From: Alphaproteobacteria bacterium
GTDB taxonomy: Bacteria; Pseudomonadota; Alphaproteobacteria; SHVZ01
Direction of reading: 5' to 3'
NCBI GenBank assembly: GCA_041906305.1
Contig: JAYRJL010000005.1
Span: 212,269 to 276,268 of the forward strand
Length of the DNA: 64,000 nt
Below, in pieces: positions 9,365 through 35,789 of this stretch (the stretch's first letter is position 1; every line of letters starts with the position of its first letter). The notes beneath the pieces are model-generated. The model made no database searches, was not told where the DNA came from, and saw only the letters and a program-made list of their open reading frames with translations. The translations under genes and the position numbers were made by a program.

Positions 9365-10105
9365 TCAGGCGACGCCGCTTCCGATCGTGACCAGCTTGCC
9401 GCGGTCGCGGACGACGATCTGGCTGGCGGTCGGGATGTCGATGACGTGACTCTCGCGAAGCTGCGTCAGGATGCGGCTGACGGTCTCGATGGTGAGGCCC
9501 AGATAGTCGGCGATGTCCGCGCGGCACATCGGCAGCTTGATCGTGTCGGCGTCGACCGTCTTCGGCGACCGCGTGCGCTCGGTCATGGCCAGAAGGAAGG
9601 ACGCGATGCGCTCGACGGCGCTCTTGCGGCAGAGGGTGAGCAGACGCTCCTGCGCCGCCGAAAGCTGGCCGCACATCAGGTTGAAGAAGCGGCGCCCGGC
9701 ACGGGGATCTTCCTCGAGGAGCTGCTTCAGCTGCTGCTTCGGATAGCGGACGAAGCTGGTGTCGGACAGCACTTCGAGGGAGTGGCTGTAGGTGCCGTCC
9801 TCGGCGAGGCCGAAGAAGTCGCCGGGGAGCAGGAAGTCGATGACCGAGCGGCGGCCGTCGGGCAGCAGGCGGACCATGCGGAGCGCGCCACTGACCACCT
9901 TGTAGACGTGCTCCGCGGCATCTCCCTGCTCGACGATCGTCTTGCCGCGCGGCATCACGTGGAGCGAGCCCAGCCGGTCCAGCGAAGCGGTGCCCGCTTC
10001 GGCGCCGGTCGGCGGCGCGAGCCGGGGAAGCTGGGTGGACGAGGTCTTCCGCGCGGGGATCTGGGTGCGGATGGCCGGGGACGCCTGAGTAGCAACTGCC
10101 GTCAT
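9365..10105 (-). CDS. fixK: Crp/Fnr-family transcription regulator of the FixK type. It has no N-terminal Cys cluster.
   Basis: It has a cNMP-binding-like domain and a C-terminal HTH (ADIADYLGLTIETVSRILTQL). The conserved E..SR recognition residues are present and match the TTGAT half-sites found in the window. The start was chosen at the second ATG because it has a GGAGGG RBS. Confidence 0.8.
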   Translation of the reverse strand: MTAVATQASPAIRTQIPARKTSSTQLPRLAPPTGAEAGTASLDRLGSLHVMPRGKTIVEQGDAAEHVYKVVSGALRMVRLLPDGRRSVIDFLLPGDFFGLAEDGTYSHSLEVLSDTSFVRYPKQQLKQLLEEDPRAGRRFFNLMCGQLSAAQERLLTLCRKSAVERIASFLLAMTERTRSPKTVDADTIKLPMCRADIADYLGLTIETVSRILTQLRESHVIDIPTASQIVVRDRGKLVTIGSGVA

Positions 10106-10214
10106 TTTTCCCTCCTGCAGCGACATCGTCGCGTTGGGAGGAGGCTACTGGCGTTGGGCGGCGCGAGAAATTTCGGGATTGTACTTAAGGGATACTACGT
10201 AGCCGCGGCGGCCC

Positions 10215-10595
10215 TCAGGACGCGAGCTGGAGCATCGCCTTTTCGATCTCGCTGAACAGGCGCGCGCCGAAGAGCGGCTTCTCGAGAAACGCCTGGACGC
10301 CCAGCGCATCGGCCTGGGCGCGGGACGCGGGATCCCATCGGCCGGTCACCATGATGACGAAGACCCTGTCCCCGCGCTCGCGCAGCTTCTGCATCAGCTC
10401 GATGCCGGTCATCTGCGGCATGTGATTGTCGAGAATGACGCATTCTCCGGCCGTGTCCCGGTCGCGCGCCAGGAACTCGGCCGCGGAAGCGTAGTCGGAG
10501 ACCGAGAAACCACGGGACTCCAGAAGAGCCTTCAGGGAATCCCGCACCATCTCGTCGTCGTCGACGATGTGAACGGTGCGCGCGCCAGTCGTCAT
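10215..10595 (-). CDS. Single-domain response-regulator receiver protein. It is FixT-like and lies between fixJ and fixK.
   Basis: It is 126 aa and contains only a REC domain (VHIVDDDEMVRDSLKALLESRGF...D57-like...VIMVTG...K). It has no output domain. Confidence 0.8.
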   Translation of the reverse strand: MTTGARTVHIVDDDEMVRDSLKALLESRGFSVSDYASAAEFLARDRDTAGECVILDNHMPQMTGIELMQKLRERGDRVFVIMVTGRWDPASRAQADALGVQAFLEKPLFGARLFSEIEKAMLQLAS

Positions 10596-10707
10596 ACCTG
10601 CCCTAACTCCTCCGCTCCGGAATTGGTCTCATGCGAGCGGAGCCGATGTCGTTCACATATGGCGAAAATCCGGATGAATGCCCATTAAGGAGAATTACCT
10701 ATCGTCG

Positions 10708-11322
10708 CTAGCGCGCGATCATCCCGGCCGCCAGGGCCATCCGCACCAGGTGGGAGAGGCTGTCCGCTTCCATCTTCTTCATGAGATTCGCGCGATGGAT
10801 CTCGACGGTGCGCGGGCTGATCTTGAGCTCGAAAGCGATGATCTTGTTCGGGTGGCCAATCACAAGTTGCTCGAGCACGTCGCGCTCGCGCGGAGTCAGC
10901 GCCGCGATCTTGGCCGCGGTGCCGGCGTCCTGGACGTGGTCCTCGCCCGAGCTCGCCTTGGCCTGCTCGAGGGCACGCGCCACGGCGGCGAGGATGATCT
11001 CGTTGCCGTACGGCTTCTCGACGAAGTCGGTGGCGCCGGCCTTCATGGCACGGACTGCCAGCGGCACGTCCCCGTGCCCGGTCACCATGATGACCGGCAG
11101 GCTCGCCGCATCGGCCTTCAGCCGCTCGATCAGCTGCAGGCCGTCCATGCCCGGCATCCTGAGATCGACCACGGCACAGGCCTGGGTCCCCGGGCGAAAG
11201 GCGCCGAGAAACGCCTCGGCGGAGTCGTAGGTGGAAACGTTGAACCCGCGGGATTCGAGCAGCGCTTGCAGGGAGTCCCTGACCGCCTCGTCGTCGTCGA
11301 CGACATAGATCGTTCCGGCCAC
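10708..11322 (-). CDS. fixJ: Two-component response regulator FixJ, with REC and LuxR-type HTH domains.
   Basis: The sequence starts VAGTIYVVDDDEAVRDSLQALLESRGFNV... and has a C-terminal LuxR HTH (LTPRERDVLEQLVIGHPNKIIAFELKISPRTVEIHRANLMKKM). The GTG start sits 10 nt after the fixL stop and has a GGAG RBS. Confidence 0.85.
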   Translation of the reverse strand: MAGTIYVVDDDEAVRDSLQALLESRGFNVSTYDSAEAFLGAFRPGTQACAVVDLRMPGMDGLQLIERLKADAASLPVIMVTGHGDVPLAVRAMKAGATDFVEKPYGNEIILAAVARALEQAKASSGEDHVQDAGTAAKIAALTPRERDVLEQLVIGHPNKIIAFELKISPRTVEIHRANLMKKMEADSLSHLVRMALAAGMIAR

Positions 11323-11335
11323 CGGGCAGCTCCGC

Positions 11336-12823
11336 CTAACCGGCGGGCAGCAGGAAACGGAACACCGTCCCGCCGCCCGGATTGGGTTCCGCCCAGATGC
11401 GCCCGCCATGATCGCCGACGATAGACTGGCTGATCGAGAGTCCGATTCCCATGCCGGTCTTCTTCGTCGTGGTGAAGGGCTTGAACAGGTTTTCCACGAT
11501 CTCGGCCGGGAGGCCCGGTCCGGTGTCGGCGATCGCAACCTCCTGATGGTCGTCGTCGAAACCGCTCGTGCGGATCACGAGCTCGCGCCGTTCGACGCCG
11601 TTCATGGCCTCGATGGCGTTGCGCACCAGGTTCACCACGACCTGCTGGATCTGGATCTTGTCCATGCTGATGGGTCGAAGGTCCGGCGCCAGGTCGTAGA
11701 GGATAGAGATGCCGTCGAGCTTGGCACCGACCGTGGCGAGCGCACCGGCCTCCTCGACGACCATCGAGAGCGATTCCGGGGCACGCTCGACCTCCGTCTT
11801 CTCCACGAAACGTCGCAGCCGCCGGATGATCTGTCCCGCCCGCTCGGCCTGCGCCGCGATCTTGCCGAGGAAGTCGACGATGCGATCCACAGGCGGGCTC
11901 GACGTCGACATCATGTGACGGGTGGCATCGCTGTAGTTGACCACCGCTGTCAGGGGCTGGTTGAGCTCGTGCGCCAGCGAGGACGCGAGCTGGCCCATCG
12001 CGCTCAGCCGCGTGATGTGCTGCATCTCGCCGGTCAGCTCGCGGATGCGGCCTTCGGCCTGGCGAAGATCCGTGGTGTTCCGGCCGATCGTCGAGATCCC
12101 GGTCACCTCTCCCTTGTCGTTGCGGATCGGCGAGAGGGTCAGCGACATGTCGAGCAGGCGGCCGTCCTTGGTCACGCGCTGGGTATCGTACTGGGCGATC
12201 ACCTCTCCCCGACACACGCGTCGGATGAGGTCGTCGACCTCGCCCTTCCGTTCGGGCGGGGCCAGGTCGGCGATCGGCCGGCCGATCATTTCCGCGGCCG
12301 TGTAGCCGTAGGTCAGCTCCGCGCCCCGGTTCCAGGCGGCGACGATGCCGCGGAGATCCTTGCCGATGATGACGTCGTGCGAGGATTCGACGATGGCCGC
12401 GAGCCGGTCGCGCTCCTGCTCGAACTGCTTCTGCCGGGTGAGGTCGTGGATGATGCCGACGAAGATGCTCCGCCCGCCCTGGTGCCCTTCGCCGACCGAG
12501 AGGTACATCGGAAAGACCGAGCCGTCCTTCCGCCGTCCCGTGACCTCGCGCCCGTGGCCGATGATCTTGGCCTTCCCGGTGGTGCGGTAGGCCGCGATGT
12601 AGCGGTCGTGCTCGTCATGATAGGGGGACGGCATCAGCATGCGGATGTTCTGGCCGATCACCTCGGCCGCCGGATAGCCGAACAGCCGCGCGCAGGCCGG
12701 GTTGTAGACCTGGACGATCCCGACGGCGTCGATGACGATGATGCCGTCGACAGCGGTCGTCAGCAGCGCATCGAGCTGAGCGCTTTCGACGTCCCGGCGA
12801 TCGTCGGACCCGGTCCGAATCAT
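11336..12823 (-). CDS. fixL: Oxygen-sensor histidine kinase FixL. A heme-binding PAS domain comes first, then a second PAS, then HisKA/HATPase.
   Basis: The first PAS domain aligns closely with the Bradyrhizobium FixL heme-PAS (NIRMLMPSPYHDEHDRYIAAYRTTGKAKIIGHGREVTGRRKDGSVFPMYLSVGE). The H-box is LAHELNQPL, and a C-terminal ATPase domain (GMGIGLSIS) follows. Confidence 0.85.
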   Translation of the reverse strand: MIRTGSDDRRDVESAQLDALLTTAVDGIIVIDAVGIVQVYNPACARLFGYPAAEVIGQNIRMLMPSPYHDEHDRYIAAYRTTGKAKIIGHGREVTGRRKDGSVFPMYLSVGEGHQGGRSIFVGIIHDLTRQKQFEQERDRLAAIVESSHDVIIGKDLRGIVAAWNRGAELTYGYTAAEMIGRPIADLAPPERKGEVDDLIRRVCRGEVIAQYDTQRVTKDGRLLDMSLTLSPIRNDKGEVTGISTIGRNTTDLRQAEGRIRELTGEMQHITRLSAMGQLASSLAHELNQPLTAVVNYSDATRHMMSTSSPPVDRIVDFLGKIAAQAERAGQIIRRLRRFVEKTEVERAPESLSMVVEEAGALATVGAKLDGISILYDLAPDLRPISMDKIQIQQVVVNLVRNAIEAMNGVERRELVIRTSGFDDDHQEVAIADTGPGLPAEIVENLFKPFTTTKKTGMGIGLSISQSIVGDHGGRIWAEPNPGGGTVFRFLLPAG

Positions 12824-12934
12824 CGAAGGATCCTAGCGCGGTAATCCCAAAACCACGTCTTGGGATACTATATTACCGCAAATTCTTGACGCTTTCTAAT
12901 CAGCCCGCGGAACAGAGCCAGGGTGACGCGGGAC

Positions 12935-19717: not shown

Positions 19718-19731
19718 TTGATCTGCGTCAA
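19718..19731. promoter_or_regulatory. FixK/FNR-type anaerobox TTGATCTGCGTCAA. Its sequence is identical to the boxes at 5982 and 27503.
   Basis: Its centre is 85 bp upstream of the ATG at 19809. Confidence 0.55.
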
Positions 19732-19808
19732 GGCGGTCCCCGCGCGCATTGCTAGCTTGTGACGGACGCGCGACGAAACCGTGTCGGCGTCGTGCGAGGG
19801 AGCAACCG

Positions 19809-20114: not shown

Positions 20115-20123
20115 CGCCTGCGG

Positions 20124-20621
20124 CTATCGTGCGGTGATGACGACGAGCAGCCGGTCCTCGAACGAGCCGGCGGCGGGGCTCTGGTCGTCCGTCAGCTCGA
20201 GCTCGAGAAGCTGCGGAGCGCCGCTATCGGCGCCGGCATTCATCGCGAGCTGCGCCTCTCCGTTCTCGAACCGGACTTCGCGTCCGCCGAAGGTCAGGCG
20301 GTAGGGAACGCTCCGGTCGCCGATTTCATCCACGAAGGCCGGCGATCCGTCGCTGGTCGTATTGGTCGAGCTCAGCTTCACGGAGAACAGCTTGTTGTTC
20401 GCGGAGATGTTGAGTTCGGTGAGGATCACCCGCCCGCGACGGGACGCGAGCGGAACCAGCGACGCGGTCTGGGTCATGGATATGCTGGCGCGCGCCGGCA
20501 CATAACCGGCGATCTGAAGATTCGACTTGGGATTGGCCGCGGCCGTGCCCGAGACACTAGCGATCCCGACGGGAAGCATGAGCACCGTCAGGAGACGAAG
20601 GATGGCTGTGCGAACCCCCAT
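20124..20621 (-). CDS. Spore-coat-U (SCPU) domain minor pilus subunit, Csu-type. It is the last gene of the pilus operon.
   Basis: It has a signal peptide (MGVRTAILRLLTVLMLPVGIASVSG). Its size matches CsuA/B-like subunits, and it lies directly downstream of the tip subunit gene. Confidence 0.6.
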   Translation of the reverse strand: MGVRTAILRLLTVLMLPVGIASVSGTAAANPKSNLQIAGYVPARASISMTQTASLVPLASRRGRVILTELNISANNKLFSVKLSSTNTTSDGSPAFVDEIGDRSVPYRLTFGGREVRFENGEAQLAMNAGADSGAPQLLELELTDDQSPAAGSFEDRLLVVITAR

Positions 20622-20647
20622 ACCTTTTATGTAGGCAGCGGAGCCCG

Positions 20648-21583
20648 CTACCGCAAGCTCCAAACCACGAGATTGATGACATCGCCGTAGTCGCCGGCCG
20701 ACGCGTCCTCGGTCGAATCCACAATGAACTCAAGCCTGTGGGTCCGGCCGCCGGGCCCGGTCCTTTCGCTGTTCACGATCGCCGTCGTCTCGCCGCCGTT
20801 GAGCTTGAGCGGGCTTCCGTCGACGAGCACGGTGTAGGGCACGACGCTCTCGTCGCTCGCATCGAGGGGACGCAACGCGCCGCCGTTCATGGACTGGAGA
20901 AGCAGGCGGTAGCCGCCATTGCTTCGCGCTTTCACATGCACCACCTGCCGGTCCCCGGCGCGAAGCTGGCCGAAATGGACAGTGTGGCTGCCGCGGTTGG
21001 GGTCGAAGCCCGTGCCTTCGGCGAAAGACACCTGCGCCACCGACGGCACCGGTGCCGAAACCGCGACGCGGCGGCGATCCCGGACCACGCCCGAGCCGAA
21101 GACGCCTTCGTACAGCGTGAACTCGATCTCGCCGCTGTAGAATCCGGATCCGGCGACCTGCTCCGGCGGGATCGAGAGCACGAGCTGCTGGATGACCGTC
21201 CCGCCCGCCGGAACGGCGCCGACATACATGTCCGCCTCGACCGCGAGCCCCGACGGACGCAGCGGCTGGCCGCCGCTCGCGTCCTTGGAGAGCCCGAATT
21301 CGAGCGAGCCCTCGCCGCCGACCAGGTACCCGGTTCCGTCGCCGCGGCCGTTCGACGGCGAGACTGTCAGATAGTACGCGCAGCCCCCGTCGTTGCTGCG
21401 CACGCGGAAATAGACGAGCTGGATGCGGCGCTGCGGGTCGAAGACGTCGTAGCCGCGGCCGTTGCCGCCGGCCCAGGTGGTCGAGGTGATGTCGCCGATG
21501 TTGATGTTGCACGCGGCCTCGGCGGCGCCGGCGAGGAGGGTCCATGTGGTCGCGGCGCCGAGCAGGAGCTTTCTGAGGTTCAT
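20648..21583 (-). CDS. Large two-domain SCPU-family pilus tip subunit (CsuE-like putative adhesin).
   Basis: It is about 311 aa, with the signal peptide MNLRKLLLGAATTWTLLAGAAEA. It follows the usher gene directly, and its start is 12 bp downstream of the usher stop (the alternative GTG at 21598 would overlap the usher stop). Confidence 0.65.
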   Translation of the reverse strand: MNLRKLLLGAATTWTLLAGAAEAACNINIGDITSTTWAGGNGRGYDVFDPQRRIQLVYFRVRSNDGGCAYYLTVSPSNGRGDGTGYLVGGEGSLEFGLSKDASGGQPLRPSGLAVEADMYVGAVPAGGTVIQQLVLSIPPEQVAGSGFYSGEIEFTLYEGVFGSGVVRDRRRVAVSAPVPSVAQVSFAEGTGFDPNRGSHTVHFGQLRAGDRQVVHVKARSNGGYRLLLQSMNGGALRPLDASDESVVPYTVLVDGSPLKLNGGETTAIVNSERTGPGGRTHRLEFIVDSTEDASAGDYGDVINLVVWSLR

Positions 21584-21594
21584 GGAGAGCGCCC

Positions 21595-24156
21595 TCACGG
21601 TGTGATCGGGTAGGTCAGACGGCCGAGATCGACACGGCCGGTGCTGTCGGCCGGAATATCGAACTCGATCGCCTTGTCGGGGTCGTTCGCCAGCGTCAGC
21701 CGGAAACGGCCCGACGAGAGTCCTTCGACGCGGAAGCGGCCGCCCCGGCTGGTGAAGAAGTCGATCGCGGGACGCGACGGATCGTCGACGGAGGTGATGG
21801 TGCCGGCTTCGAGCGGCAGCGGCTTGTCCTCGGCGTCGACGAGGAGGCCGTCGCCGAGCACGGTCGCACCGGTGCCGACATTGATCACCGTGCCGCTGCG
21901 GTAGGTCGGCTGCAGGTCGTAGACCTGCCGGCCGAGCTCGTAGCCGAGCGGAAGCTCGGGCGCGTCGATGGTGACGTGGTGCTGATAGTAGGATCCCAGC
22001 TCGGGCAGCACGGCGGTGCCGAGAATGTCGGTCCGTGCCTGGGGCGTCTCGCTGATGTTGTTCACCTCGATCGACTGGCCGGCCAGGGACGGGTGCGGGA
22101 CGAAGAGAGCGAAGCTGTCGTTGATCGGCCGCGTGATCGCGGTCTGGCCGCCGGCAAAGGCGATCGCCGTGCCGAAGTTGACCCGGGTCCGAGGATGGGT
22201 CGAGTTGCCGTCGCCGCGCTCGGTCATCGTCGCGTGCGAGGCGGAGGTGGTGAAGCGATAGCCGGTGTAGCCGACGTCGCCGTCGATCGTGTCGCGGCCG
22301 GCGTCGCGGCCGAGCGCAAGGTCTGCCTGGACGCCGTCAACCCGCATCGTCGGCGTATAGGACCAGTCGACCCTGCGGGCGCGCTCGGTCGTATCGTAGG
22401 AGGTGCCGACGCGCTGGCCGGAGCCGCGCGGGAACCAGGAAACGCCGAGGAAGATGCGGTTGTCGCTGCCGCCGTAGCTCGCTTGGCGCGTGCTCAGCAG
22501 CAGCGACGCGGTGACGTCCTCGGCGATCTGCATGCTCATGCTCGCGTCGCCCGTGGTCACGTTCGGCTGGCCGTCGCGCGCGAACTGCCGGGCGACGCCG
22601 AGACTGCCGTAGAGCGTCTCGCTGAGCCGCTGCCCGAACAGCACGCCGAGGCTGAGCGCGACCGGGTTGCTGGCCGAGGTCTGCGAGATGCTGGTGAAGT
22701 CGGGCGAGCGATACGTCGCGGTCGAGGCGAGGAACCGCCCGCGCGAGGTGGTCGACGGGCTCTCGGTGAACCGGTGCTGGATGCGGAAGGCGCCGCCGGT
22801 GCCGGCGAAGCTCGACTGGCTGGCGGAGAGGTCGGAGCGGAAGGTTCCGATGGCGGTCGCGAGCCGCATCTCGGTCCCCACCAGGTTCACGTTCCGCGAG
22901 GCCTGGTAGTTGCCGCCGAGCGTCAGCTGGTCGGTGAGGCCGAAGGTGTGGAACGCCGAGACCACGCGGTCCGTGCGGTCGTAGGTGCGGCCGGCGTTGG
23001 TCGCCGTCGAGGGGAAGCCGATGGCATAGCCGAAATCCTGCTCGCCCTCCGCCAGCACGCTCGCATCGAAGACGAAGGGAAAGCGGATGACGTCGACGCG
23101 GCCGACCTCGTCGACGATCCGCAGCGTCACGTCGTTGGTGCCGCCGACCAAGGGCAGGTCGCGGACGTTGTAGCGGCCGGGCGTGAGGTCGAGGGTCCGC
23201 ATCCGCTGCCCGTTGACGATCACGTCGACGCGGGCGTTGCGGTCGAGGTTCAGGTCGGTCTCGCCGACCGGGGCGCTCGAGCGGTAGGGCTGGAGCCCGA
23301 AGTTGCGGGCGATCGAGATGCCGCCGGCGCGGCGGTAGGACTGGAAGCCACCGATGCCATAGTTGACGTCGCCTATCGACAGCCGGGTGCGGCTCTCCGG
23401 ATCGTCGCGGACGATCCGCGTGTCGCCCCGCGTCCAGGGCGCCGCGCCGATGTCGCGATAGGTCCCGACGCTCTCGATGACGTTGCCGTAGAGATTCAGC
23501 GCCGCGTCGAGGTCGGTGACGATCGGCGTCGACCCGTCGCGGTTCGGAACGAAGTCGTGCCCGGAAAGCAGATTGACGTAGCCGCTGACGTCGGCGGGCG
23601 CGAGGAGCTCCCTGCGTTCGGCACCATACGGGTTGGCGAGGCTGAGCGACTGGGTCGTGCGCATGTCGAGCGGCACGCGCAGCGTCGCCTCGATACGGCC
23701 GATGTCGTAGGCGACGGCGATGCCCTCGCTGCGGATGTCGTCGGCGGTGAGGCGTCCGCCCGAGCCGATCCGCGCCCGCAGCGCCTGCAGCTTCTCGGGC
23801 ACGAGAAACCGCTCCAGCAGCTTGAGCAGGGCAGGGCCGTCGAAGGCGAGGAGCTCGTCCCGGACCGAGATGAAGGCGACGGCCTCGCCCAACGGCAGCT
23901 GCTCGATCTTCACCGGAATCTCGAGGCGGGTCGCCGGCGGCGGCTTTTTCGCCTCGGGCTTGGACGGGGTCGGCTCGTCGGTCTTGGGGGCGGCGGCGAT
24001 GCCCGGCTGCAGCGGCAGGGTCCGCATGGACGCCACGCCGGACGGATCCGCGAGAGCGCTGCCGGCGACCGCCGTCAGCGCGAGGGCGAGGAGACCCGGG
24101 ATCAGCCCGCGGGTGTCGCCGAAAAGGAAAGGGCGGCGGCAGTGACGACGCGACAT
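21595..24156 (-). CDS. Outer-membrane fimbrial usher protein.
   Basis: It is 853 aa with a signal peptide. Its size and overall architecture match PapC/CsuD ushers, and it lies between the chaperone and tip genes. Confidence 0.85.
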   Translation of the reverse strand: MSRRHCRRPFLFGDTRGLIPGLLALALTAVAGSALADPSGVASMRTLPLQPGIAAAPKTDEPTPSKPEAKKPPPATRLEIPVKIEQLPLGEAVAFISVRDELLAFDGPALLKLLERFLVPEKLQALRARIGSGGRLTADDIRSEGIAVAYDIGRIEATLRVPLDMRTTQSLSLANPYGAERRELLAPADVSGYVNLLSGHDFVPNRDGSTPIVTDLDAALNLYGNVIESVGTYRDIGAAPWTRGDTRIVRDDPESRTRLSIGDVNYGIGGFQSYRRAGGISIARNFGLQPYRSSAPVGETDLNLDRNARVDVIVNGQRMRTLDLTPGRYNVRDLPLVGGTNDVTLRIVDEVGRVDVIRFPFVFDASVLAEGEQDFGYAIGFPSTATNAGRTYDRTDRVVSAFHTFGLTDQLTLGGNYQASRNVNLVGTEMRLATAIGTFRSDLSASQSSFAGTGGAFRIQHRFTESPSTTSRGRFLASTATYRSPDFTSISQTSASNPVALSLGVLFGQRLSETLYGSLGVARQFARDGQPNVTTGDASMSMQIAEDVTASLLLSTRQASYGGSDNRIFLGVSWFPRGSGQRVGTSYDTTERARRVDWSYTPTMRVDGVQADLALGRDAGRDTIDGDVGYTGYRFTTSASHATMTERGDGNSTHPRTRVNFGTAIAFAGGQTAITRPINDSFALFVPHPSLAGQSIEVNNISETPQARTDILGTAVLPELGSYYQHHVTIDAPELPLGYELGRQVYDLQPTYRSGTVINVGTGATVLGDGLLVDAEDKPLPLEAGTITSVDDPSRPAIDFFTSRGGRFRVEGLSSGRFRLTLANDPDKAIEFDIPADSTGRVDLGRLTYPITP

Positions 24157-24196
24157 GCGCCTTCGCCTCCCGCCGCCCTCGTGTACGCGCGAGGGA

Positions 24197-24967
24197 TTAC
24201 TGTGCCGTGTACTTGAAGTCGGCCTTGATCGCGCCTTCGGGCAGATCCTGGGGCAGCGGCAGCAGGAACCGGCGCTGAGACTTGGCGAGGATGTTCTCGC
24301 CGGTCACGGTCTCGGCGACCGCCGACTTGTCGAGGGTGCGGCTGACGCTGCCGGCGGAAACGGTCACCGAGGGAGCGTCGATGATCGCATGGCGGCTGCC
24401 GCGATTCTCGAGCACGACCTCGAGCAGCTTGCCGCCGCCGCGCGGGGCGGGCACGGCCTGCGCCGAGGCGACGACCACGTCGGCCTTCACGCCCTTCGGC
24501 ACGACGTAGATCGAGCCGACGTAGCGGACGGTGAGGAACACCGAGGCGCCGGGCGTGTCGCGGCGCTTATTGAGCGGGGTCTCTTCGGCGATGATGCGGT
24601 AGGAGAGCTCCTGCTTGGGCGCCGGATCGCCGATCCACTTGGCGCGCACCAGGCGCGAGGTCTTCGGCTGGAGCTGGATCTCCGTCGGGAAGACGGTGAA
24701 GTCCTCGGTCGGCTCGAGCGTCTCCTGGCCGTTGATGTCGACCTTGCGGAGCGCCATCGCCACGGTGACGGTGATCGGCTCGTCGCGGTCGTTCTCGACC
24801 TGGAAGGTCTGGTTGGAGCCGCGGCCCGACGGATCGAAATCCTGCGAGATCGGGACGATCTGGAAGGCGCTGGCGGCGGACGAGATCGCGCCCGAGACCA
24901 GCACGCCGGCGACGAGGGCGGCCACCTTGCGGCCGCCCATGTCGGGGAGAAGCTTGAACAGGTTCAT
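24197..24967 (-). CDS. Periplasmic pilus chaperone (PapD-like / CsuC).
   Basis: The N-terminus MNLFKLLPDMGGRKVAALVAGVLVSGAISSAASA is a signal peptide, and an Ig-like chaperone fold follows (FQIVPISQDF...). A GAGG RBS is present. The start was chosen at M89 of the track ORF. Confidence 0.8.
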   Translation of the reverse strand: MNLFKLLPDMGGRKVAALVAGVLVSGAISSAASAFQIVPISQDFDPSGRGSNQTFQVENDRDEPITVTVAMALRKVDINGQETLEPTEDFTVFPTEIQLQPKTSRLVRAKWIGDPAPKQELSYRIIAEETPLNKRRDTPGASVFLTVRYVGSIYVVPKGVKADVVVASAQAVPAPRGGGKLLEVVLENRGSRHAIIDAPSVTVSAGSVSRTLDKSAVAETVTGENILAKSQRRFLLPLPQDLPEGAIKADFKYTAQ

Positions 24968-24974
24968 GGCAGCC

Positions 24975-25571
24975 TCACTGCATGTTGAGAGAGATGGTGA
25001 CGATGTCTTGGTAGGTACCGGCGCCGAGGTCCGACGACCCGGTGAAGTTGAGGTAGATCTGGCTTGTCTCGTTGGTGACCTTGCCATGCGTGACTTCGCG
25101 GCCGACCTGGCCGACGCAGCTCGTGGCGAGGAGCCCGGTGACGACCGGGGTGCTTCCGCCGGTCGCCGGATTGACGAACTCGGCGGAGTAGGGGAGGAAC
25201 TCGTCCGACCCCGTGTTGAGGATCTTGCCACCGGCCGGTGCCACCGCGCAGCTCATCGAGGTGACGCTGACGATGTAGCTGCGCCTGCCGTTGCAGTCCT
25301 GGAGAGCGCTGCCGATCATGATCCGGTGCGCTCCCGGCGCGGTGATCGGAAGCTCGACGGCCTGGGACGTCGAGGAAACGTTGATCGTGCATTTGCCCTC
25401 GACCGTCCCCGAGAGCAGGATTGCAGTCGCGGCCTCGCAGACGTCGCAGACGTCGAGCAGCCATGGAGCCGTGAGCGCCCCGCCCGTGAGGGCCGCCGCG
25501 AGGGCCAGCGCCAGCCATGCTTTGCGGAAGTTCGGCATGTTGCTGCGGAAATCATCGTCGCTGCGTTTCAA
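24975..25571 (-). CDS. SCPU-domain major pilin paralog 4, Csu-type.
   Basis: It has a signal peptide, a CDVCEAA motif and a C-terminal GTYQDIVTISLNMQ donor-strand-like motif. Confidence 0.75.
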   Translation of the reverse strand: MKRSDDDFRSNMPNFRKAWLALALAAALTGGALTAPWLLDVCDVCEAATAILLSGTVEGKCTINVSSTSQAVELPITAPGAHRIMIGSALQDCNGRRSYIVSVTSMSCAVAPAGGKILNTGSDEFLPYSAEFVNPATGGSTPVVTGLLATSCVGQVGREVTHGKVTNETSQIYLNFTGSSDLGAGTYQDIVTISLNMQ

Positions 25572-25587
25572 GCTCGAGGCGTGCCGG

Positions 25588-26160
25588 TCACTTCGTCGCG
25601 AGCGTGACGGTCAGGGTGTCGGTGTAGGTACCCGCCGTGAGCGCACCCGAGCCCGTGTAGTTGAGATAGACGTAGCTGGTCTCGGCAAAGATCGGCACGC
25701 CGGTGACGTCGCGCGCGACCTGCGAGGAGCAGCTGCTGAGCAGAAGATCGGTGGTGTCGGTGCTGGTGCCGGTGGCGGGATTGTCGAACTCGACGGAGTA
25801 CTGAAGATAGTCGGTCGCCGGCGTCGGCCCGACGACCTTCGCGCCGGTCGGAGCCGCCGCACAGTGCGACGAGGTCACGGTCAGCGTGTAGCCGTCAGGG
25901 TCGTTGCAGCTCTGCACGACGTTGGCGACCATGACGCGGGTGACGCCGCCCGTCAGGGTGAGGTTGGAGGCGGCCGGAAGGGCCGTCGCATCGACCGAGC
26001 AGGTCGGTCCGACGATTCCGGAGAGCGGGATCGTGTCGGAGAGCTGCGCCATGCAGATGTCGCACTTAGAGAATGACCAGACGCCGACGAGCGCGAGTCC
26101 GAGGGCGGCGAGGCCGCCGGCGATCAGGTTGCGCCTGGTGAACTTGCTGGGGGACTTCAT
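25588..26160 (-). CDS. SCPU-domain major pilin paralog 3.
   Basis: The sequence runs MKSPSKFTRRNLIAGGLAALGLALVGVWSFSKCDICMAQ...GTYTDTLTVTLATK. The start at 26160 is consistent with the FixK box spacing. Confidence 0.75.
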   Translation of the reverse strand: MKSPSKFTRRNLIAGGLAALGLALVGVWSFSKCDICMAQLSDTIPLSGIVGPTCSVDATALPAASNLTLTGGVTRVMVANVVQSCNDPDGYTLTVTSSHCAAAPTGAKVVGPTPATDYLQYSVEFDNPATGTSTDTTDLLLSSCSSQVARDVTGVPIFAETSYVYLNYTGSGALTAGTYTDTLTVTLATK

Positions 26161-26225
26161 CTTCGTTCCTCTCGCGGCTGCGGAGCCGGATAAGTGCAAT
26201 TTGATGGGTATTTGCGGTGCCGACC

Positions 26226-26239
26226 TTGAGATGGATCAA
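26226..26239. promoter_or_regulatory. FixK/FNR-type anaerobox TTGAGATGGATCAA upstream of pilin paralog 3.
   Basis: Its centre is about 72 bp upstream of the ATG at 26160. Confidence 0.55.
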
Positions 26240-26258
26240 GCAAAACCGGCGTCGCCGC

Positions 26259-26852
26259 CTACTTGATGTTCATCGTGACGGTGAGCGTGTCCTGGTAGGT
26301 GCCGGCGGCAAGCGCGCCGTCGCCGGTGAAGTTCACGAAGATGTTGCTGTTCTCGCCGAACGCCTTCCAGTTGGAGACGTCGCGCGCGACCTGGCCGGTG
26401 CAGGCGCTCTGCAGCAGGTTGGTGACGGTGGCCTGGCTGCCGCCGCCGGTCGGGTTGTTGAACTCCGCCGTGTAGCGCAGAACCTCGTTCGAGGCGGCAT
26501 CGATCACCTTGGCGCCGGCCGTGCCCGAGGCGCAGTTGAGCGAGGTGATGGTGAGCGTGTAGCCGATCTTCTTGTTGCAGGTCTGTGCGGCGGCGCCAAC
26601 CTGCACATGCTGCGCGCCCGTCGTGGTCAGAGGCAGGTTGGACGCGCCCGTCGCCGTGCTGACGCTGAGCGTGCAGTTCTGCGCCACGGCGCCTTGCAGC
26701 AGCACCGTCGTCGCGGCGGCGCAGATCTCGCAGTCCTCGGCGAACTGCGAGGCGACCACCGCGGCGCCGACGAGGACGGCGGCCACGGCCGCCGCAGCGA
26801 GAGGAGCGCGGCGATTTTTGCGGTTGAGGATGGTCATGTCTGCCGACTTCAC
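26259..26852 (-). CDS. SCPU-domain major pilin paralog 2.
   Basis: The sequence ...FAEDCEICAAATTVLLQG...GTYQDTLTVTMNIK identifies it. Its ATG and the stop of paralog 1 overlap in an ATGA arrangement. Confidence 0.75.
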   Translation of the reverse strand: MKSADMTILNRKNRRAPLAAAAVAAVLVGAAVVASQFAEDCEICAAATTVLLQGAVAQNCTLSVSTATGASNLPLTTTGAQHVQVGAAAQTCNKKIGYTLTITSLNCASGTAGAKVIDAASNEVLRYTAEFNNPTGGGSQATVTNLLQSACTGQVARDVSNWKAFGENSNIFVNFTGDGALAAGTYQDTLTVTMNIK

Positions 26853-27415
26853 TTCACGTTCATGGTGACGGTGATCGTGTCCTGGTACGTGCCGGCGGCG
26901 AGGTTGCCGTCACCGGTGAAGTTCACGAAGACCAGGCTGCTCTCGTTCCGCGCCTTCCAGTTGGTGACGTCGCGACCGACCTGGCTCGCGCAGGCCGACT
27001 GCAGCAGGCCGGTCACGGTCGCCTGGCTGCCGCCGTCCGTCGGGTTGTTGAACTCGGTGCTGTAGGCCAGGACCTCGGTCGACACCGGATCGATCACCTT
27101 CGCGCCGGCAGTGCCGCTCGCGCAGTTTGCCGAGCTGACGGTAAGCGTGTAGCCGACCTTCTTGTTGCAACTCTGGAGGACCGAGCCGACCTGGACATGC
27201 TGGCTGCCGGCGGTCGTCAGGGGCAGGTTCGCCGCCGCGGCCGTCGAACTGACGTCGAGCGTGCAGTTCTGCGCGACGGTGCCCTGCAGCAGGATCTGGT
27301 TCGCCGCCTCGCACACCTCGCAGTCGCTGAACAGCGACAGCCCGGCGGCAATCGCGATCGCGCCGGCACCGGCGGCGAGCAGATGCCACCGCTTGAACTG
27401 GGGTTTGAACGACAT
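26849..27415 (-). CDS. SCPU-domain major pilin paralog 1, the first gene of the pilus operon.
   Basis: The sequence runs MSFKPQFKRWHLLAAGAGAIAIAAGLSLFSDCEVCEAAN...GTYQDTITVTMNVK. Confidence 0.75.
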   Translation of the reverse strand: MSFKPQFKRWHLLAAGAGAIAIAAGLSLFSDCEVCEAANQILLQGTVAQNCTLDVSSTAAAANLPLTTAGSQHVQVGSVLQSCNKKVGYTLTVSSANCASGTAGAKVIDPVSTEVLAYSTEFNNPTDGGSQATVTGLLQSACASQVGRDVTNWKARNESSLVFVNFTGDGNLAAGTYQDTITVTMNVK

Positions 27416-27502
27416 GGTTTGCCCTTTCCGAGATCAGGAGGGTGGCCTGGCGGACCACCGCACTTTCTGTTTCCAGGAGAGCAAATCGCCGCCTGACGCA
27501 CC

Positions 27503-27516
27503 TTGATCTGCGTCAA
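27503..27516. promoter_or_regulatory. FixK/FNR-type anaerobox TTGATCTGCGTCAA upstream of the pilus operon.
   Basis: Its centre is about 94 bp upstream of the ATG at 27415. Confidence 0.6.
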
Positions 27517-27550
27517 ACAAAATTGAGTAAAATGCGGCGTTTTCGAGGCG

Positions 27551-28603
27551 TCAGCGAAGTTGTTCGACCGCCTGCAACCGACGCTCCGGCGATGCGGCAC
27601 GGTGGTGGAAGTAGGCCGCGACGGCGACGAGGATCGCGCCGACGAAGATGGCGATGTGGCGATCCACGACGATCGGGTCGCCCCGCCATGCGGCCCTCGT
27701 CTCGACCAAGACCATCAGCGTGCCCAGCAGGCTCGCGAAGGCCCCGAGCAGATCGAGACGCCAGGCGCGGTACCCGAACAGCGAACCCCGCCCATAGCGC
27801 GCGGTCGAGCCTCCCTGCGCGAGCACGATGCGATAGACGAGCCTTGCGGCGGCGAGCACCGCGATGGTTCCGACCACGAATCCGGCGGTCTGCAGCAGCG
27901 GCGCGAACGGTGCATGGATGCCGAACGTGTTGCGCACCAGCAGGAGCGGGTAGTTGTAGAGCGCGTGAAGGGCGACCGGGACGTAGAGGGCGGCCGCATA
28001 GCTGCGCCATCTGAACGAAGCGCCGTGACTCGCGCCCATGACGTTGCCGAACTTGGCGCGCGCGACATAGACACCGGCGATCACGCCCAGCGCGCCGTGG
28101 GTGGGTACGGTGAGGATGCTGCGGATGACCGCGTGCTCGCGCCACGCATCGGTGAGATGCACGGCGAGCAGGAGGTTCTCGTAGGCGGCCAGCCCGAGCC
28201 CGACGGCGGCGCCGTAGATGACGCCCTCCATCGGATGGTCGTAGGCGAGGAACCGGCGTGAGAAGAGAAGAAGGATAAGGACCTTGAGCGTCTCCTCCGG
28301 GATCGCGATGTCGACCACCGCCTGAAGCAGGGTCGCCACCGACCGGTCCGGCTCGAGCCAGGCGACATCCTCGCCGAACAGGAGCTGCAGGGCGTCGAGG
28401 ATGTAGTCGCCGATGAAGCTCGCCGCGGGTGAGATCACGTGCAGCGCCGAGGTGCTGAGGGCGCCGAGGAGGAACGTCCCGACGACCGCGTAGGCCGGCT
28501 CGGGCCGCTTGTCGAAGAACGTCAGGGTCAGGAGATAGAGAAGCGGCGGCGCTACGGCCGCCGCGCCGAGCACGGTGACCATGGCTTCAGCGGCCGCGCC
28601 CAT
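27551..28603 (-). CDS. PrsW-family intramembrane metalloprotease-like protein (polytopic membrane protein).
   Basis: Multiple TM helices carry the PrsW motifs EExxK (IPEETLKV), FxxxE-like (AAYEN) and conserved His residues (PTHGALG, HALYNYP). The start is uncertain (M51 or M58 of the track ORF). Confidence 0.6.
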   Translation of the reverse strand: MGAAAEAMVTVLGAAAVAPPLLYLLTLTFFDKRPEPAYAVVGTFLLGALSTSALHVISPAASFIGDYILDALQLLFGEDVAWLEPDRSVATLLQAVVDIAIPEETLKVLILLLFSRRFLAYDHPMEGVIYGAAVGLGLAAYENLLLAVHLTDAWREHAVIRSILTVPTHGALGVIAGVYVARAKFGNVMGASHGASFRWRSYAAALYVPVALHALYNYPLLLVRNTFGIHAPFAPLLQTAGFVVGTIAVLAAARLVYRIVLAQGGSTARYGRGSLFGYRAWRLDLLGAFASLLGTLMVLVETRAAWRGDPIVVDRHIAIFVGAILVAVAAYFHHRAASPERRLQAVEQLR

Positions 28604-28676
28604 GGGACTGCTTCGGCTCGAAGCGGGGCGACCCCGCCGGAATGCACGGGTTTGAGCGCATGCAGGGCTCGATCGC

Positions 28677-30365
28677 TCAATCCAGGTGGATGGTGCGGCC
28701 GCCCATGCGCTGGGCCGCTTCGGCGGCCTGGCGACGGGTGGCGCTGACCGCATGCTCGGCCGCCCAGACGCGCATCTGCGCGATCTGCTCGCGCCGGGTC
28801 TGCGCCAACGGCACGAGCCGCGGCAGGATCGCCTCGAAATCCGCCATCTCGAGGTCGCCCTCGACCTTGGCGTTCCGCGTGCGCTGGAAGGATTCGATCA
28901 GCGCCTCGGACACCCACGCCTCGATCTCGGCGCCGCTCATGCGGATGTCGGGGCCGAAATGCTTCTCGCCCGACAGCTCGACCAGGCGATCGAGGTCGAA
29001 CTTGGACGGATCGCGGCGACGCCGGCGGATCTGGACCTCGAAGATCTGCTTACGCTCCTCGTCGTTCGGCAGGTCGATGAAGAACACCTCGTCGAACCGC
29101 CCCTTGCGCAGTATTTCCGGCGGCAGGGCGGCGACGTCGTTGGCGGTGGCGAAGATGAACACCGGCGCGGTCTTCTCCTGCATCCAGGTGAGCAGGGTGC
29201 CGAACACGCGAAGCGAGACGCCGCTGTCGCCGATCATGCGGCTGGAATGGGCGAGGCCCTTCTCGATCTCGTCGATCCACAGCACGCAGGGGGCGATCGC
29301 CTCGCAGGTCTTGAGCGCGTTCCGCATGTGCTCTTCCGACGAGCCGATCAGCGAGGAGAAGATCTTGCCCATGTCGAGCTTGACCAGGGGGAGGCCCCAG
29401 GCGGCGGCCGTGCACTTGGCGGACAGCGACTTGCCGCAGCCGGGGATGCCGGTCAGCAGCACGCCCTTGGGCGGATCGAGGCCGTAGGCCTTCGCCTCCC
29501 GGCCGAAGGTCAGGCTGCGGATCTGCAGCCAGCGCTTGAGCACGTCGAGGCCGCCGACGTCGCCGGCCGAAAGCGACCGGTTGTCGATGTATTCGAGGAT
29601 TCCCGACTTCCGGATGATCTGCTTCTTCTCGTCGAACATGAAGCGCGTGTCTTCGAGCGTGATCGCCCGGTCGTGGACGAGGGCCTTGGCCAGGCAGTTT
29701 TCGATCTCGGCGAGCGTCAGGCCCATCGCCGCGTCCGTCAGCGCCTCGATCATCTCGCGCCCGGGCTCGACGGTGATCGTGGTGTTCTCGGCGACGCGGG
29801 TGACGAACTGCTCGACGAAGCGGCCCACCTGCTCGCGATCCGGAACCGGGAAGTCGACGACCGTGATCTCCTTCTCGAGCTCGAGAGGGATCTCGAGGCT
29901 CGGGGAGATGATCACGCAGGAGGCGCTGAAGCCGTGGCCGCGGATGGCCATGGCGAACTCGCGCAGCCGGCGGCGGTAGATCGCATCGACGGGCTTGTCG
30001 CTGAGGAAGGGGAACGGGTCGAGAAGCACGAACAGGTGCCGCTTGCCGTCCTGGGCGATGCGCTCGCACTGGTCGATCGCGATCTTGAGATCGGCAAGGG
30101 AGTCCTTGAAGGTCTGCGGCTTCTCGTCCCCGTCCTCGAGCTTCGAGACCAGGCCGCGCACCACCGTCCAGACGTGGATGTGATAGGTCAGCGCCTTGGC
30201 GACGTCGACGACGACCTTGAGCGCCCGCTCCTCCTCGTAGGTGAAGACCTGCACGATGGGAAAGCGGGCGCGCAGCAGGTCGGCGATCTCGTTGGCGAAC
30301 GCGGTCTTGAAGGTCGCAGCCGGATATCCGGCTGTCGCGACCTTGGCCAGGGAGACGGGGCACAT
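28677..30365 (-). CDS. AAA+ ATPase of the classical AAA clade (FtsH/Cdc48-like ATPase domain) with a 270-aa N-terminal domain of unknown function.
   Basis: Walker A is GVLLTGIPGCGKS, Walker B is CVLWIDEIE, and the second region of homology is ATANDVAALPPEILRKGRFDEVFFIDLP. The N-terminal 270 aa are unassigned. Confidence 0.8.
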   Translation of the reverse strand: MCPVSLAKVATAGYPAATFKTAFANEIADLLRARFPIVQVFTYEEERALKVVVDVAKALTYHIHVWTVVRGLVSKLEDGDEKPQTFKDSLADLKIAIDQCERIAQDGKRHLFVLLDPFPFLSDKPVDAIYRRRLREFAMAIRGHGFSASCVIISPSLEIPLELEKEITVVDFPVPDREQVGRFVEQFVTRVAENTTITVEPGREMIEALTDAAMGLTLAEIENCLAKALVHDRAITLEDTRFMFDEKKQIIRKSGILEYIDNRSLSAGDVGGLDVLKRWLQIRSLTFGREAKAYGLDPPKGVLLTGIPGCGKSLSAKCTAAAWGLPLVKLDMGKIFSSLIGSSEEHMRNALKTCEAIAPCVLWIDEIEKGLAHSSRMIGDSGVSLRVFGTLLTWMQEKTAPVFIFATANDVAALPPEILRKGRFDEVFFIDLPNDEERKQIFEVQIRRRRRDPSKFDLDRLVELSGEKHFGPDIRMSGAEIEAWVSEALIESFQRTRNAKVEGDLEMADFEAILPRLVPLAQTRREQIAQMRVWAAEHAVSATRRQAAEAAQRMGGRTIHLD

Positions 30366-30530
30366 GTTCCGGTCGCCCGCCTAACGGACGACGGTCGTCG
30401 GGCATACGGCGCGCCGCAGGCGTTTCCGTCCGCGCTCGCCGCCCACGATCTTCTGCATCGCCGTTTCTCCCAACCGTCGCCGCCGCATGACGGGCCGGAA
30501 TGACCATGGACGGCGGGGCAGAGACGTTCC

Positions 30531-30544
30531 TTGATGTAGGTCAA
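30531..30544. promoter_or_regulatory. FixK/FNR-type anaerobox TTGATGTAGGTCAA between the divergent AAA-ATPase and transporter genes.
   Basis: It overlaps the GTG that the track uses as the ORF start. The true transporter start is therefore probably downstream, for example the ATG at 30687. Confidence 0.5.
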
Positions 30545-30545
30545 C

Positions 30546-34631: not shown

Positions 34632-34717
34632 GGCGATCTGGCCCATGGCTTTTCCTTGACCCAGGCGCGGACGCGCGCAGGATGGGCGTCTCCCCTGAAG
34701 GACCGACTTTCCTCCCG

Positions 34718-35638
34718 ATGACTCAGCTTCCGGCTTCCGTCGACACGACGCTCGCGCTGCTCGCCAAGGGCGACTACGTCGCCGACCGCTCGCTCGCCAC
34801 CGCGGTCTATCTCTCGCTGTCGCTGAAGCGGCCGCTGTTCCTCGAAGGCGAGGCCGGCGTCGGCAAGACCGAGATCGCGAAGGTGCTCTCGGCGACGCTC
34901 GGCCGCGACCTGATCCGCCTTCAATGCTACGAGGGCCTCGACGTCGCATCTGCGGTCTACGAGTGGAACTACGCCCGCCAGATGATCGAGATCCGGATGG
35001 CGGAGGCCACCGGCACCGGCGACCGCGAGCGGGTCGCGACCGACATTTTCGACCGCAAGTTCCTGATCGAGCGGCCGCTGCTCAAGGCGATCGCGCACCC
35101 GAAGCCGTCGCCGGTGCTGCTGATCGACGAGCTCGACCGCGCCGACGAGCCCTTCGAGGCCTACCTGCTGGAAGTGCTGTCGGACTGGAAGATCACCATC
35201 CCCGAGCTCGGCACGGTCGCCGCGGAGGAGCCGCCGATCGTGGTGGTGACCTCCAACCGCACGCGCGAGATCCACGACGCGCTGAAGCGCCGCTGCTTCT
35301 ACTACTGGGTCGACTACCCCAAGGCCGAGCGCGAGCTCGAGATCCTGCGCGTCAAGGCGCCGAACGCGCCGGCGGAGCTCTCCCGCCAGATCGTCGCCTT
35401 CATCCAGAAGCTGCGCGGCACCGACCTCTTCAAGCTGCCCGGCGTCGCCGAGACCATCGACTGGGCGAACGCGCTGGTCCAGCTCGACCAGCTCCAGCTC
35501 GAGCCCGACGCGGTCAACAACACGCTCGGCGTGCTGCTCAAGTACCAGGACGACATCTCCAAGATCCAGGGCAGCGAGGCCAACCGCCTGCTCATGGAAG
35601 TGAAGGCCGAGATCGCGCGGGCGCAGGCGACCGCGTGA
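34718..35638 (+). CDS. coxD: MoxR-family AAA ATPase, CoxD-like.
   Basis: Walker A is GEAGVGKT and Walker B is LLIDELDRA. A MoxR-type C-terminus follows. Confidence 0.85.
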   Translation: MTQLPASVDTTLALLAKGDYVADRSLATAVYLSLSLKRPLFLEGEAGVGKTEIAKVLSATLGRDLIRLQCYEGLDVASAVYEWNYARQMIEIRMAEATGTGDRERVATDIFDRKFLIERPLLKAIAHPKPSPVLLIDELDRADEPFEAYLLEVLSDWKITIPELGTVAAEEPPIVVVTSNRTREIHDALKRRCFYYWVDYPKAERELEILRVKAPNAPAELSRQIVAFIQKLRGTDLFKLPGVAETIDWANALVQLDQLQLEPDAVNNTLGVLLKYQDDISKIQGSEANRLLMEVKAEIARAQATA

Positions 35639-35659
35639 TGAAACCGCGGCTCGCCTCGT

Positions 35660-35764
35660 ACCCCCTCCCCCTTGACGGGGGAGGGATGGGGTGGGGGTGG
35701 AGCAGCAAACTCGTTGCTGGCAGCACCCCCCACCCTAACCCTCCCCCGCAAGGGGGGAGGGGAC
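35660..35764. repeat. Composite GC-rich palindromic repeat (REP/MITE-like), copy 1.
   Basis: The sequence is CCCTCCCCC-ttgac-GGGGGAGGG atGGGGTGGGGGTGG ... CCCCCCACCCTAACCCTCCCCCgcaaGGGGGGAGGGG. It belongs to the same family as the copies at 38.1, 47.7, 50.4, 54.4-54.8 and 60.6 kb. Confidence 0.8.
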
Positions 35765-35789
35765 ATGAGACGCGAGCGGAGTCACTCTG

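Follow-up and report, generated by a model that had tools for sequence, protein, structure and literature searches.

A PrsW-family membrane protease heads an archaic chaperone-usher pilus module and is a candidate processor of its CxxC pilin leaders

In a 64,000-nt stretch of an alphaproteobacterial genome (contig JAYRJL010000005.1; guanine-plus-cytosine content 68%), hereafter the window, a gene for a soluble AAA+ ATPase is followed on the minus strand by a gene for a PrsW-family polytopic membrane protease, which raises the question of whether the protease belongs with the ATPase or with the genes that lie downstream, and what it might act on. A first-pass annotation, made from the sequence alone, had proposed a split analogue of a membrane AAA protease, with the unfoldase and the intramembrane peptidase encoded as separate polypeptides. 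The same-strand order and the 73-bp gap on which this proposal drew were both confirmed, the gap measuring exactly 73 bp. A terminator scan found no terminator-like site between the two genes, its sole match lying inside the PrsW coding region and within chance expectation, and co-transcription in the window is plausible because the gap is this short and contains no terminator. The split protease itself did not survive the comparison of related loci, in which the ATPase and a pilus module headed by PrsW each occur without the other and the pair is not conserved as a gene neighbourhood. The locus comprises two evolutionarily separable units under common predicted FixK (low-oxygen) control, namely the ATPase gene and the PrsW-headed pilus module. 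The pilus genes, which provide the key context, lay outside the earlier reading, which also missed a second FixK box at 27503–27516; its passing idea that pilus substrates might be processed is consistent with the evidence presented below.

We assigned the module (28603..20124) as a predicted nine-gene archaic chaperone-usher pilus of the Csu/SCPU type, based on its outer-membrane usher and its PapD-like chaperone, both of which score above the respective family cut-offs (Table 1). The gene order is PrsW, four pilins of about 190 residues each (27415..24975), chaperone, usher, tip subunit and minor subunit. The pilins are divergent members of their class: pilins 1 and 3 reach 17.8–18.6 bits against the SCPU model PF05229 (cut-off 22.4), and pilins 2 and 4 gave no match. 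Precomputed SCPU matches were found for four pilin-family homologues and for the tip subunit of L175 (related loci are designated L with a number), and the tip-subunit homologues of L173 and L176 match SCPU faintly. Homologues of the last conserved gene close the clusters of L011, L021, L093 and L173–L176. The module is rare: among 185,579 species genomes only two or three have it, counting L011, L021 and L012 (a remnant), the other examples coming from metagenomic sequence, and a tblastn search with pilin 1 against 72,556 plasmids returned no match. In L012, an Asaia bogorensis contig from a metagenome-assembled genome (MAG), a pilus-clade PrsW is followed directly by a homologue of the last module gene (positions 1–1128); the pilins, chaperone, usher and tip are missing, and an FNR-like regulator is encoded about 2 kb downstream. 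We considered L012 as a case of pilus-clade PrsW without pilus genes and rejected it, as the retained last module gene marks an apparent internal-deletion remnant, possibly an assembly artefact.

The pilins of the module share an unusual leader. In four of four window pilins, and in most pilins of the related clusters, a basic N-terminus is followed by 20–22 uncharged residues and then by an acidic Cys box, [DE]-C-[DE]-[VIF]-C-[EQ]-A-A-[NT], with the donor strand x-I-L-L-Q-G-T-V...C coming directly after it. The hydrophobic length is given here as the absolute 20–22 residues, a comparison of the longest uncharged runs being unfair in that the runs of ordinary leaders include the C-region. A profile search recovered 119 members of the pilin family, comprising 64 with the CxxC leader, about 10 with a Cys-less G[YF]D[VI][FIL]EAAN box and about 45 with an ordinary A-x-A leader. 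The A-x-A site of the ordinary-leader homologues aligns at the point where the CxxC box meets the same donor strand, so that, by homology, the mature N-terminus of the CxxC pilins should be the residue after C-x-A. A six-frame search of the window with the motif C[DEG][VIFL]C[EQAMD]A found the four pilins only, and across 2.3 Mb of fetched loci the motif was confined to module-bearing loci. In the two clusters that run convergently with the ATPase gene, the first pilin (L021 11049–11654; L093 11061–11678) carries the Cys-less box G-Y-D-[VI]-[IL]-E-A-A-N, suggesting that the acidic/EAA part of the box is conserved independently of both Cys residues.

This leader tracks with PrsW. In every one of the nine clusters with CxxC-leader pilins (the window, L011, L001/L091, L007, L008, L021, L093, L174 and L176) the protease gene directly precedes the first pilin gene, and this order persists despite PrsW identities that fall to about 40%, pilin numbers that range from two to five, and varied flanking genes. 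The two clusters inspected that consist wholly of ordinary A-x-A-leader pilins (L173 and L175) contain neither PrsW nor the ATPase. Similarly, about 150 loci of the next-closest PrsW paralogues (36–41% identity, mostly from Bradyrhizobium) have neither pilus genes nor the ATPase nearby. Scans of genomes and metagenomes with a PrsW profile returned mostly such Bradyrhizobium-type paralogues, which serve as negative controls, and few new module loci; the pilus-type PrsW clade comprises about 14 clusters at 90% identity. Together, these data make it very probable that PrsW belongs to the pilus module.

The protease was assigned to the PrsW family (PF13367/M82) by profile and catalytic motifs. PF13367 matched with 86.9 bits (E=1.7e-24; cut-off 23.5) over residues 85–277 of a 400-aa open reading frame, in which the start at 28603 was set by alignment and is common to 14 homologues. 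The motifs PEExxK (E103, E104, K107), AAYEN (E142, N143) and LHALYN (H213) are invariant in the clade, with these six residues unchanged across the 14-homologue alignment; H170 is replaced by Gln in 3 of the 14, and N217 alternates between Asn and Asp. Among the motifs named in the first-pass annotation, EExxK, the catalytic Glu and the His residues are thus present, and only its 'FxxxE' needs amending, there being no Phe at this position. The NCBIfam PrsW equivalog model NF033739 scored 81.2 bits against a cut-off of 225, and no extracytoplasmic function (ECF) sigma factor, anti-sigma factor or membrane-tethered regulator gene is conserved in or beside any of the nine module clusters; we therefore judge that the window PrsW is not an orthologue of the RsiW site-1 protease. 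A search of PDB sequences gave no meaningful match. The predicted architecture is an eight-helix core with a clade-specific extension of two C-terminal helices. This extension (residues 275–350) contains an invariant R279-x-W281-R282 together with an Arg-rich cytoplasmic loop (259–284), and shorter PrsW paralogues of 290 aa, such as P0136, do not align to it; it could form a docking surface.

What, then, might the protease do for the pilus? That PrsW acts on the CxxC leader has, in our estimate, an even chance or a little better, and the balance tips slightly towards the combined statement that PrsW is part of the pilus module and serves as its dedicated leader-processing protease. The long hydrophobic segment would make the pre-pilins N-in/C-out signal-anchored proteins, and a positive-inside reading of PrsW would place E142/N143 near the outer leaflet, with E103/E104, H170 and H213 mid-membrane. 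In B. subtilis, PrsW cleaves the type-II membrane protein RsiW between Ala168 and Ser169 in its extracytoplasmic domain (PMC8767453). The pilus-clade protease would most likely make the maturation cut after C-x-A, or it might clear the leader afterwards; either action would release the pilins to the chaperone and the usher.

Several points weigh against this assignment. The orientation proposed for the PrsW active site derives from the positive-inside rule only, and the AlphaFold2 (AF2) model of the protein, built from 14 sequences, is all-helical and of low confidence (predicted local distance difference test, pLDDT, 58). LepB, the signal peptidase I, might do the cutting, because C-x-A↓A fits the −3/−1 rule of this enzyme. 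The comparison with ordinary-leader clusters draws on two inspected examples, and the ushers of the CxxC-leader clusters are closer to one another than to those of L173 and L175. The CxxC-leader clusters thus probably form one subclade of the pilus family; a single gain of PrsW and a single gain of the leader might suffice for it, and nine clusters versus none do not amount to nine independent events. Some pilins inside PrsW clusters, moreover, carry ordinary leaders. Finally, the ATPase adjoins the module in seven of the nine module loci, in two orientations, and on account of this adjacency a functional link of the ATPase to the module is possible. An extension of the leader-processing assignment, which we regard as improbable, would make the leader and PrsW together a checkpoint: signal-anchored pre-pilins would wait in the inner membrane, and their release by PrsW would be gated by the juxtamembrane CxxC through its redox or metal state. 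Pilus assembly would then be coupled post-translationally to the low-oxygen conditions that drive FixK transcription, and in lineages with co-transcription the AAA+ ATPase might extract leader stubs.

Three other accounts of PrsW bear on the same observations. Signal peptidase I might cut C-x-A↓A itself, with PrsW then clearing leader remnants or jammed pre-pilins from the membrane. Such a division of labor agrees with the −3/−1 fit and with a 20–22-aa segment long enough to span the membrane, from which membrane-stable remnants would be expected, and it predicts the same co-occurrence pattern as leader processing by PrsW; we nonetheless consider it rather unlikely, given that signal peptidase I substrates do not typically have long hydrophobic cores or C-regions that are acidic and contain Cys, and that we know of no dedicated clearing protease serving a single operon. 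It is likewise unlikely, to a slightly greater degree, that PrsW works as a regulatory site-1 protease on a membrane-tethered regulator of pilus expression or envelope stress and not on the pilins. For the family, experiments have established no role other than site-1 proteolysis (PMC8767453), and the first gene of a cluster is a common position for a regulator. The absence of a conserved sigma, anti-sigma or tethered-regulator gene at the nine clusters and the equivalog score far below its cut-off (81 versus 225 bits) argue otherwise, and a regulatory role would leave the tracking of the special leader with PrsW unexplained. A pure passenger, kept by inherited gene order and without a pilus role, is least credible and indeed very unlikely. 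The module loci may share one ancestor and represent few independent lineages, as this account requires, but PrsW, although identity within the clade falls to about 40%, is still intact and its catalytic residues are invariant. Over the same span the ATPase was lost or inverted, pilin numbers changed and flanks were replaced; even the deletion remnant L012 keeps PrsW.

The account first given of this locus, in which the soluble AAA+ unfoldase docks on PrsW and feeds it substrates as a split FtsH analogue for low-oxygen regulated proteolysis, is quite unlikely. The arrangement in the window invites it, with both genes on one strand, the short terminator-free gap, a FixK box upstream and a complete set of catalytic motifs in the D2 domain of the ATPase, and the ATPase stands beside the module in seven of nine loci, including the convergent L021 and L093. 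However, orthologues and paralogues of the ATPase overwhelmingly lack PrsW, and no PrsW gene lies beside the homologues in L003/L004 (57% identity), L171 (61%), L172 (63%) or the Prevotella locus L005 (49%). The comparison of L003 with L007 is particularly informative: their ATPases are 96% identical and follow identical upstream genes (FtsH, DUF3775, glycosyltransferase-3-family (thymidine-phosphorylase-like), exo/endo-phosphatase and cytochrome c), yet the ATPase of L007 is followed by PrsW, five pilins, chaperone and usher, and that of L003 by an unrelated gene starting 20 bp on. The module is therefore present or absent as one block beside ATPases that differ only in what lies downstream, with no sign of ATPase specialization, and in L003 the ATPase retains its own FixK box without the module. 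Conversely, the PrsW-pilus clusters L174 and L176, which were found via their pilins, have no ATPase within the available sequence (about 480 bp upstream and 4.4 kb downstream in L174; about 3.4 kb upstream and 4.5 kb downstream in L176). In L093 and in L021, the latter from a Thalassobaculum MAG, the ATPase gene lies on the other strand at the distal end of the pilus genes, a convergent arrangement that is explained by one module inversion. The ATPase also has neither a membrane anchor nor a dedicated N-terminal adaptor, and its pore loop 1 (L-I-G) offers no aromatic residue. We conclude that the ATPase-PrsW 'split protease' is not a real system and that, seen evolutionarily, the ATPase stands outside the pilus module; their adjacency needs no explanation beyond common descent and regulation in common.

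The ATPase can be placed on its own terms. Residues 302–431 match Pfam AAA (PF00004; E=2.3e-27, 96.4 bits), and the Walker A, Walker B and second region of homology (SRH) reported in the first-pass annotation were all located in D2, as GIPGCGKS at 306, VLWIDE at 361 and TAND...LRKGR at 407 respectively, which assigns the protein by sequence to the classical clade of AAA+ ATPases and marks D2 as the predicted active domain. Among PDB sequences, the ATPase matches the D2 domains of NVL, Cdc48 and p97 best. NCBIfam models for CDC48, PAN and FtsH align over the AAA core only and fall far under their cut-offs (TIGR01243 CDC48, 100 bits versus 803). An AF2 model from 45 homologues (pLDDT 84) superposed in Foldseek over about 580 columns onto the D1-D2 tandem of p97/Cdc48/NVL/Rix7 (template modelling score, TM, 0.62–0.65), and the N-terminal 270 residues, previously termed uncharacterized, are accordingly modelled as a degenerate D1-like AAA domain spanning residues ~20–260. 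The P-loop position of D1 reads V-F-T-Y-E-E-E-R and GxxGxGK[ST] is not conserved in the family; D1 is therefore a putative pseudo-ATPase domain. No adaptor-type N-domain precedes it, no transmembrane helix appears in the model, and no M41 domain is present. Pore loop 1 of D2 (residues 336–341) reads S-L-I-G, with a family consensus of S-x-L-V-G; lacking the aromatic residue of substrate-threading classical AAA proteins, it makes polypeptide translocation by this family questionable.

The N-domain alone recovers 808 clusters at 50% identity (E≤1e-10), mostly of proteins of 500–560 aa. A Nitrospirillum homologue that is 52% identical to the ATPase carries the UniRef name 'AAA domain-containing protein ycf46', a name only. 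The gene is thus a stand-alone member of a very large, slowly evolving family of known kind, with a function that is probably independent of PrsW. In Prevotella-type contigs (L005/L006, 7659–9260) the homologue is followed on the same strand by DUF2997, YxeC/HHH_3 membrane-protein and small radical-SAM-like genes, a conserved-looking Bacteroidota neighborhood that may hint at the family's own function. Several known systems were considered for the ATPase and set aside. A PADLOC scan gave generic AAA-core matches to IetA and TRIP13 only and no match for the PrsW gene, and a defence-system reading was dropped on this result; the IetAS anti-phage system was likewise rejected, the NCBIfam IteA model scoring 68 bits against a cut-off of 510. 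An FtsH-like membrane AAA protease was rejected for the missing M41 domain and for the separate occurrence of the ATPase (L003, L005, L171, L172) and the module (L174, L176). An Rfam scan of window positions 19000–32000 found no match.

The two units do share their regulatory signals. The motif TTGAYN4RTCAA occurs 10 times in the window, compared with 0.05 expected from shuffles. The box reported in the first-pass annotation at 30531 is present (TTGATGTAGGTCAA) and is kept in orthologous promoters, at the equivalent position before the ATPase in L001, L007, L008, L011 and L021 as well as in the ATPase-only locus L003. The second box, TTGATCTGCGTCAA, lies before the first pilin and is retained at the same position in L001, L007, L008, L011, L021 and L093; where the module begins with PrsW alone, no strict FixK box is present before it. 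Genes for FixL-, FixJ- and FixK-like proteins are encoded within the window, and these regulators probably act on the FixK boxes; in L008 the same four regulator genes lie directly upstream of the ATPase. On the strength of the boxes, their conservation and the nearby cognate regulators, the promoters of the ATPase and of the pilus module are putatively FixK/FNR-regulated, in keeping with the FixK control first suggested for the ATPase, and both units are predicted members of a FixK island.

Eight further FixK-type boxes (5982–5995, 6039–6052, 12935–12948, 15000–15013, 15595–15608, 19059–19072, 19718–19731 and 55958–55971) lie beside genes that encode a YkuD L,D-transpeptidase, a PfkB kinase, Usp proteins, a Pat-like ADP-forming acyl-CoA synthetase/GNAT protein (6043–8796), a Host_attach/baeRF-12 protein (15058–15651) and a beta-CASP RNase (15650–17305), and over its initial 30 kb the window resembles a FixLJ-FixK regulon island. 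Divergent from the ATPase, on the plus strand, lies a gene for a BT1-family (folate/biopterin transporter-like) membrane protein (30546–32231), and the same pair occurs in L011. Its annotated GTG start abuts the FixK box at 30531–30544, which might act in both directions; the real start codon probably lies at some point downstream of the annotated one. A second AAA gene, of the MoxR/AAA_5 type, is followed by a VWA CoxE-like gene at 34700–37028 on the plus strand; this is a standard MoxR-VWA pair, unconnected to the ATPase and PrsW.

Table 1. Positions, strands and supporting evidence for the principal features of the window.
Feature	Position	Strand	Evidence and remarks
FixL-like PAS histidine kinase, FixJ-like regulator (REC+GerE), single-domain response regulator, FixK-like Crp-family regulator	9368..12832	-	Pfam
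Last conserved module gene, ~165 aa, minor pilin-like, ordinary signal peptide	20124..20621	-	Homologues at cluster ends
Tip/adhesin-like subunit, ~311 aa, ordinary signal peptide	20648..21583	-	Homologue comparison
Outer-membrane usher, 853 aa	21595..24156	-	PF00577, 69.8 bits, over cut-off
PapD-like periplasmic chaperone, ordinary signal peptide	24197..24967	-	PapD_N, 27.4 bits (cut-off 23)
Pilin 4, leader box DV-CDVC-EAA	24975..25538	-	Likely ATG 25538
Pilin 3, leader box SK-CDIC-MAQ	25588..26160	-	SCPU E=0.0025; likely ATG 26160
Pilin 2, leader box ED-CEIC-AAA	26259..26837	-	Likely ATG 26837; reading frame open from 26852
Pilin 1, 188 aa, divergent SCPU-type	26849..27415	-	SCPU E=0.0044; leader MSFKPQFKRW + 21-aa hydrophobic segment + D-CEVC-EAA
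Second FixK box TTGATCTGCGTCAA	27503..27516		87 nt before the pilin 1 ATG, within the 135 bp between PrsW and pilin 1
PrsW-family (M82, glutamic-type) polytopic membrane protease, 350 aa, first module gene	27551..28603	-	PF13367
Soluble classical-clade AAA+ ATPase, 562 aa	28677..30365	-	Pfam AAA, motifs, AF2 model
FixK/FNR-type box TTGATGTAGGTCAA	30531..30544		165 nt upstream of the ATPase ATG

Should the proposed role of PrsW be correct, it would add a maturation step to the chaperone-usher pathway, provide a second, structural class of substrates for the large and poorly understood PrsW family, and offer a simple, recognizable motif for probing PrsW specificity. The checkpoint extension, if true, would give chaperone-usher pathways their first example of a dedicated intramembrane leader protease and of a regulated maturation step. 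For the ATPase, the lesson is that an AAA+ ATPase gene adjacent to a membrane protease gene is not automatically a 'split FtsH', tempting as this inference is. Its D2 domain resembles the classical-clade AAA domains of FtsH and IetAS (PADLOC, IetA E=9e-23 and FtsH E=9e-21, over the AAA domain only, with every score well under its family cut-off), but unlike these systems it has no transmembrane anchor, no M41 or S8 protease and no conserved partner. Its nearest candidate counterparts are Ycf46/COG0464-type AAA ATPases and the Cdc48/p97/NVL tandem proteins. Its predicted D1-D2 two-domain fold is like that of the Cdc48/p97/NVL tandem, from which it differs in that D1 has TYEEER in place of a P-loop and no N-terminal adaptor domain is present. 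Literature searches on FixK with SCPU, on FixK with AAA ATPases and on Ycf46 found nothing relevant.

The pilus module most resembles archaic (sigma-clade, Csu/CupE/SCPU-type) pili such as CsuA/BABCDE of Acinetobacter baumannii. In both, one operon encodes an usher, a PapD-like chaperone, a two-domain tip subunit and several small subunits, those of the module being putatively of SCPU type, and at the start of the mature pilins a donor strand of alternating hydrophobic pattern is followed by a Cys that is conserved. It departs from them in having a PrsW-family protease first, a long CxxC leader on most subunits, and pilins that score under the Pfam SCPU threshold. Chaperone-usher pili are textbook Sec and signal-peptidase-I systems without a dedicated protease, and we know of no archaic chaperone-usher system that includes a protease or whose subunits use other than ordinary Sec signal peptides. 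Searches of a literature library returned no published link of PrsW to chaperone-usher pili or to pilins. As far as can be told, archaic chaperone-usher pili that have PrsW as their leading gene and CxxC leaders on their pilins are a variant not described before, and the leader itself is apparently undescribed.

With B. subtilis PrsW, the pilus-clade protease shares PF13367 and the motifs EExxK, ExN and HxxxN/D, and its proposed pre-pilin substrates would be, like RsiW (PMC8767453), N-in/C-out single-span proteins cut after Ala on the outer face. It differs in its two extra C-terminal helices, in having no sigma/anti-sigma pair nearby, and in that the substrates proposed here are structural pilins. 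For polymorphic toxins, Zhang et al. (2012, PMC3482391) proposed a PrsW domain as the releasing peptidase, a role that would similarly involve the processing and membrane release of an exported protein. In the toxins the domain is fused to its cargo and would be autoproteolytic; here it is encoded by a separate gene and would serve several pilins with a common leader motif. By analogy, this arrangement recalls PilD, sortases, exosortase, archaeosortase and rhombosortase, in which a co-encoded polytopic membrane protease is matched to a short motif beside a membrane-spanning segment; unlike those peptidases, PrsW comes from an unrelated protease family, would recognize another motif, and would serve assembly by the chaperone-usher route.

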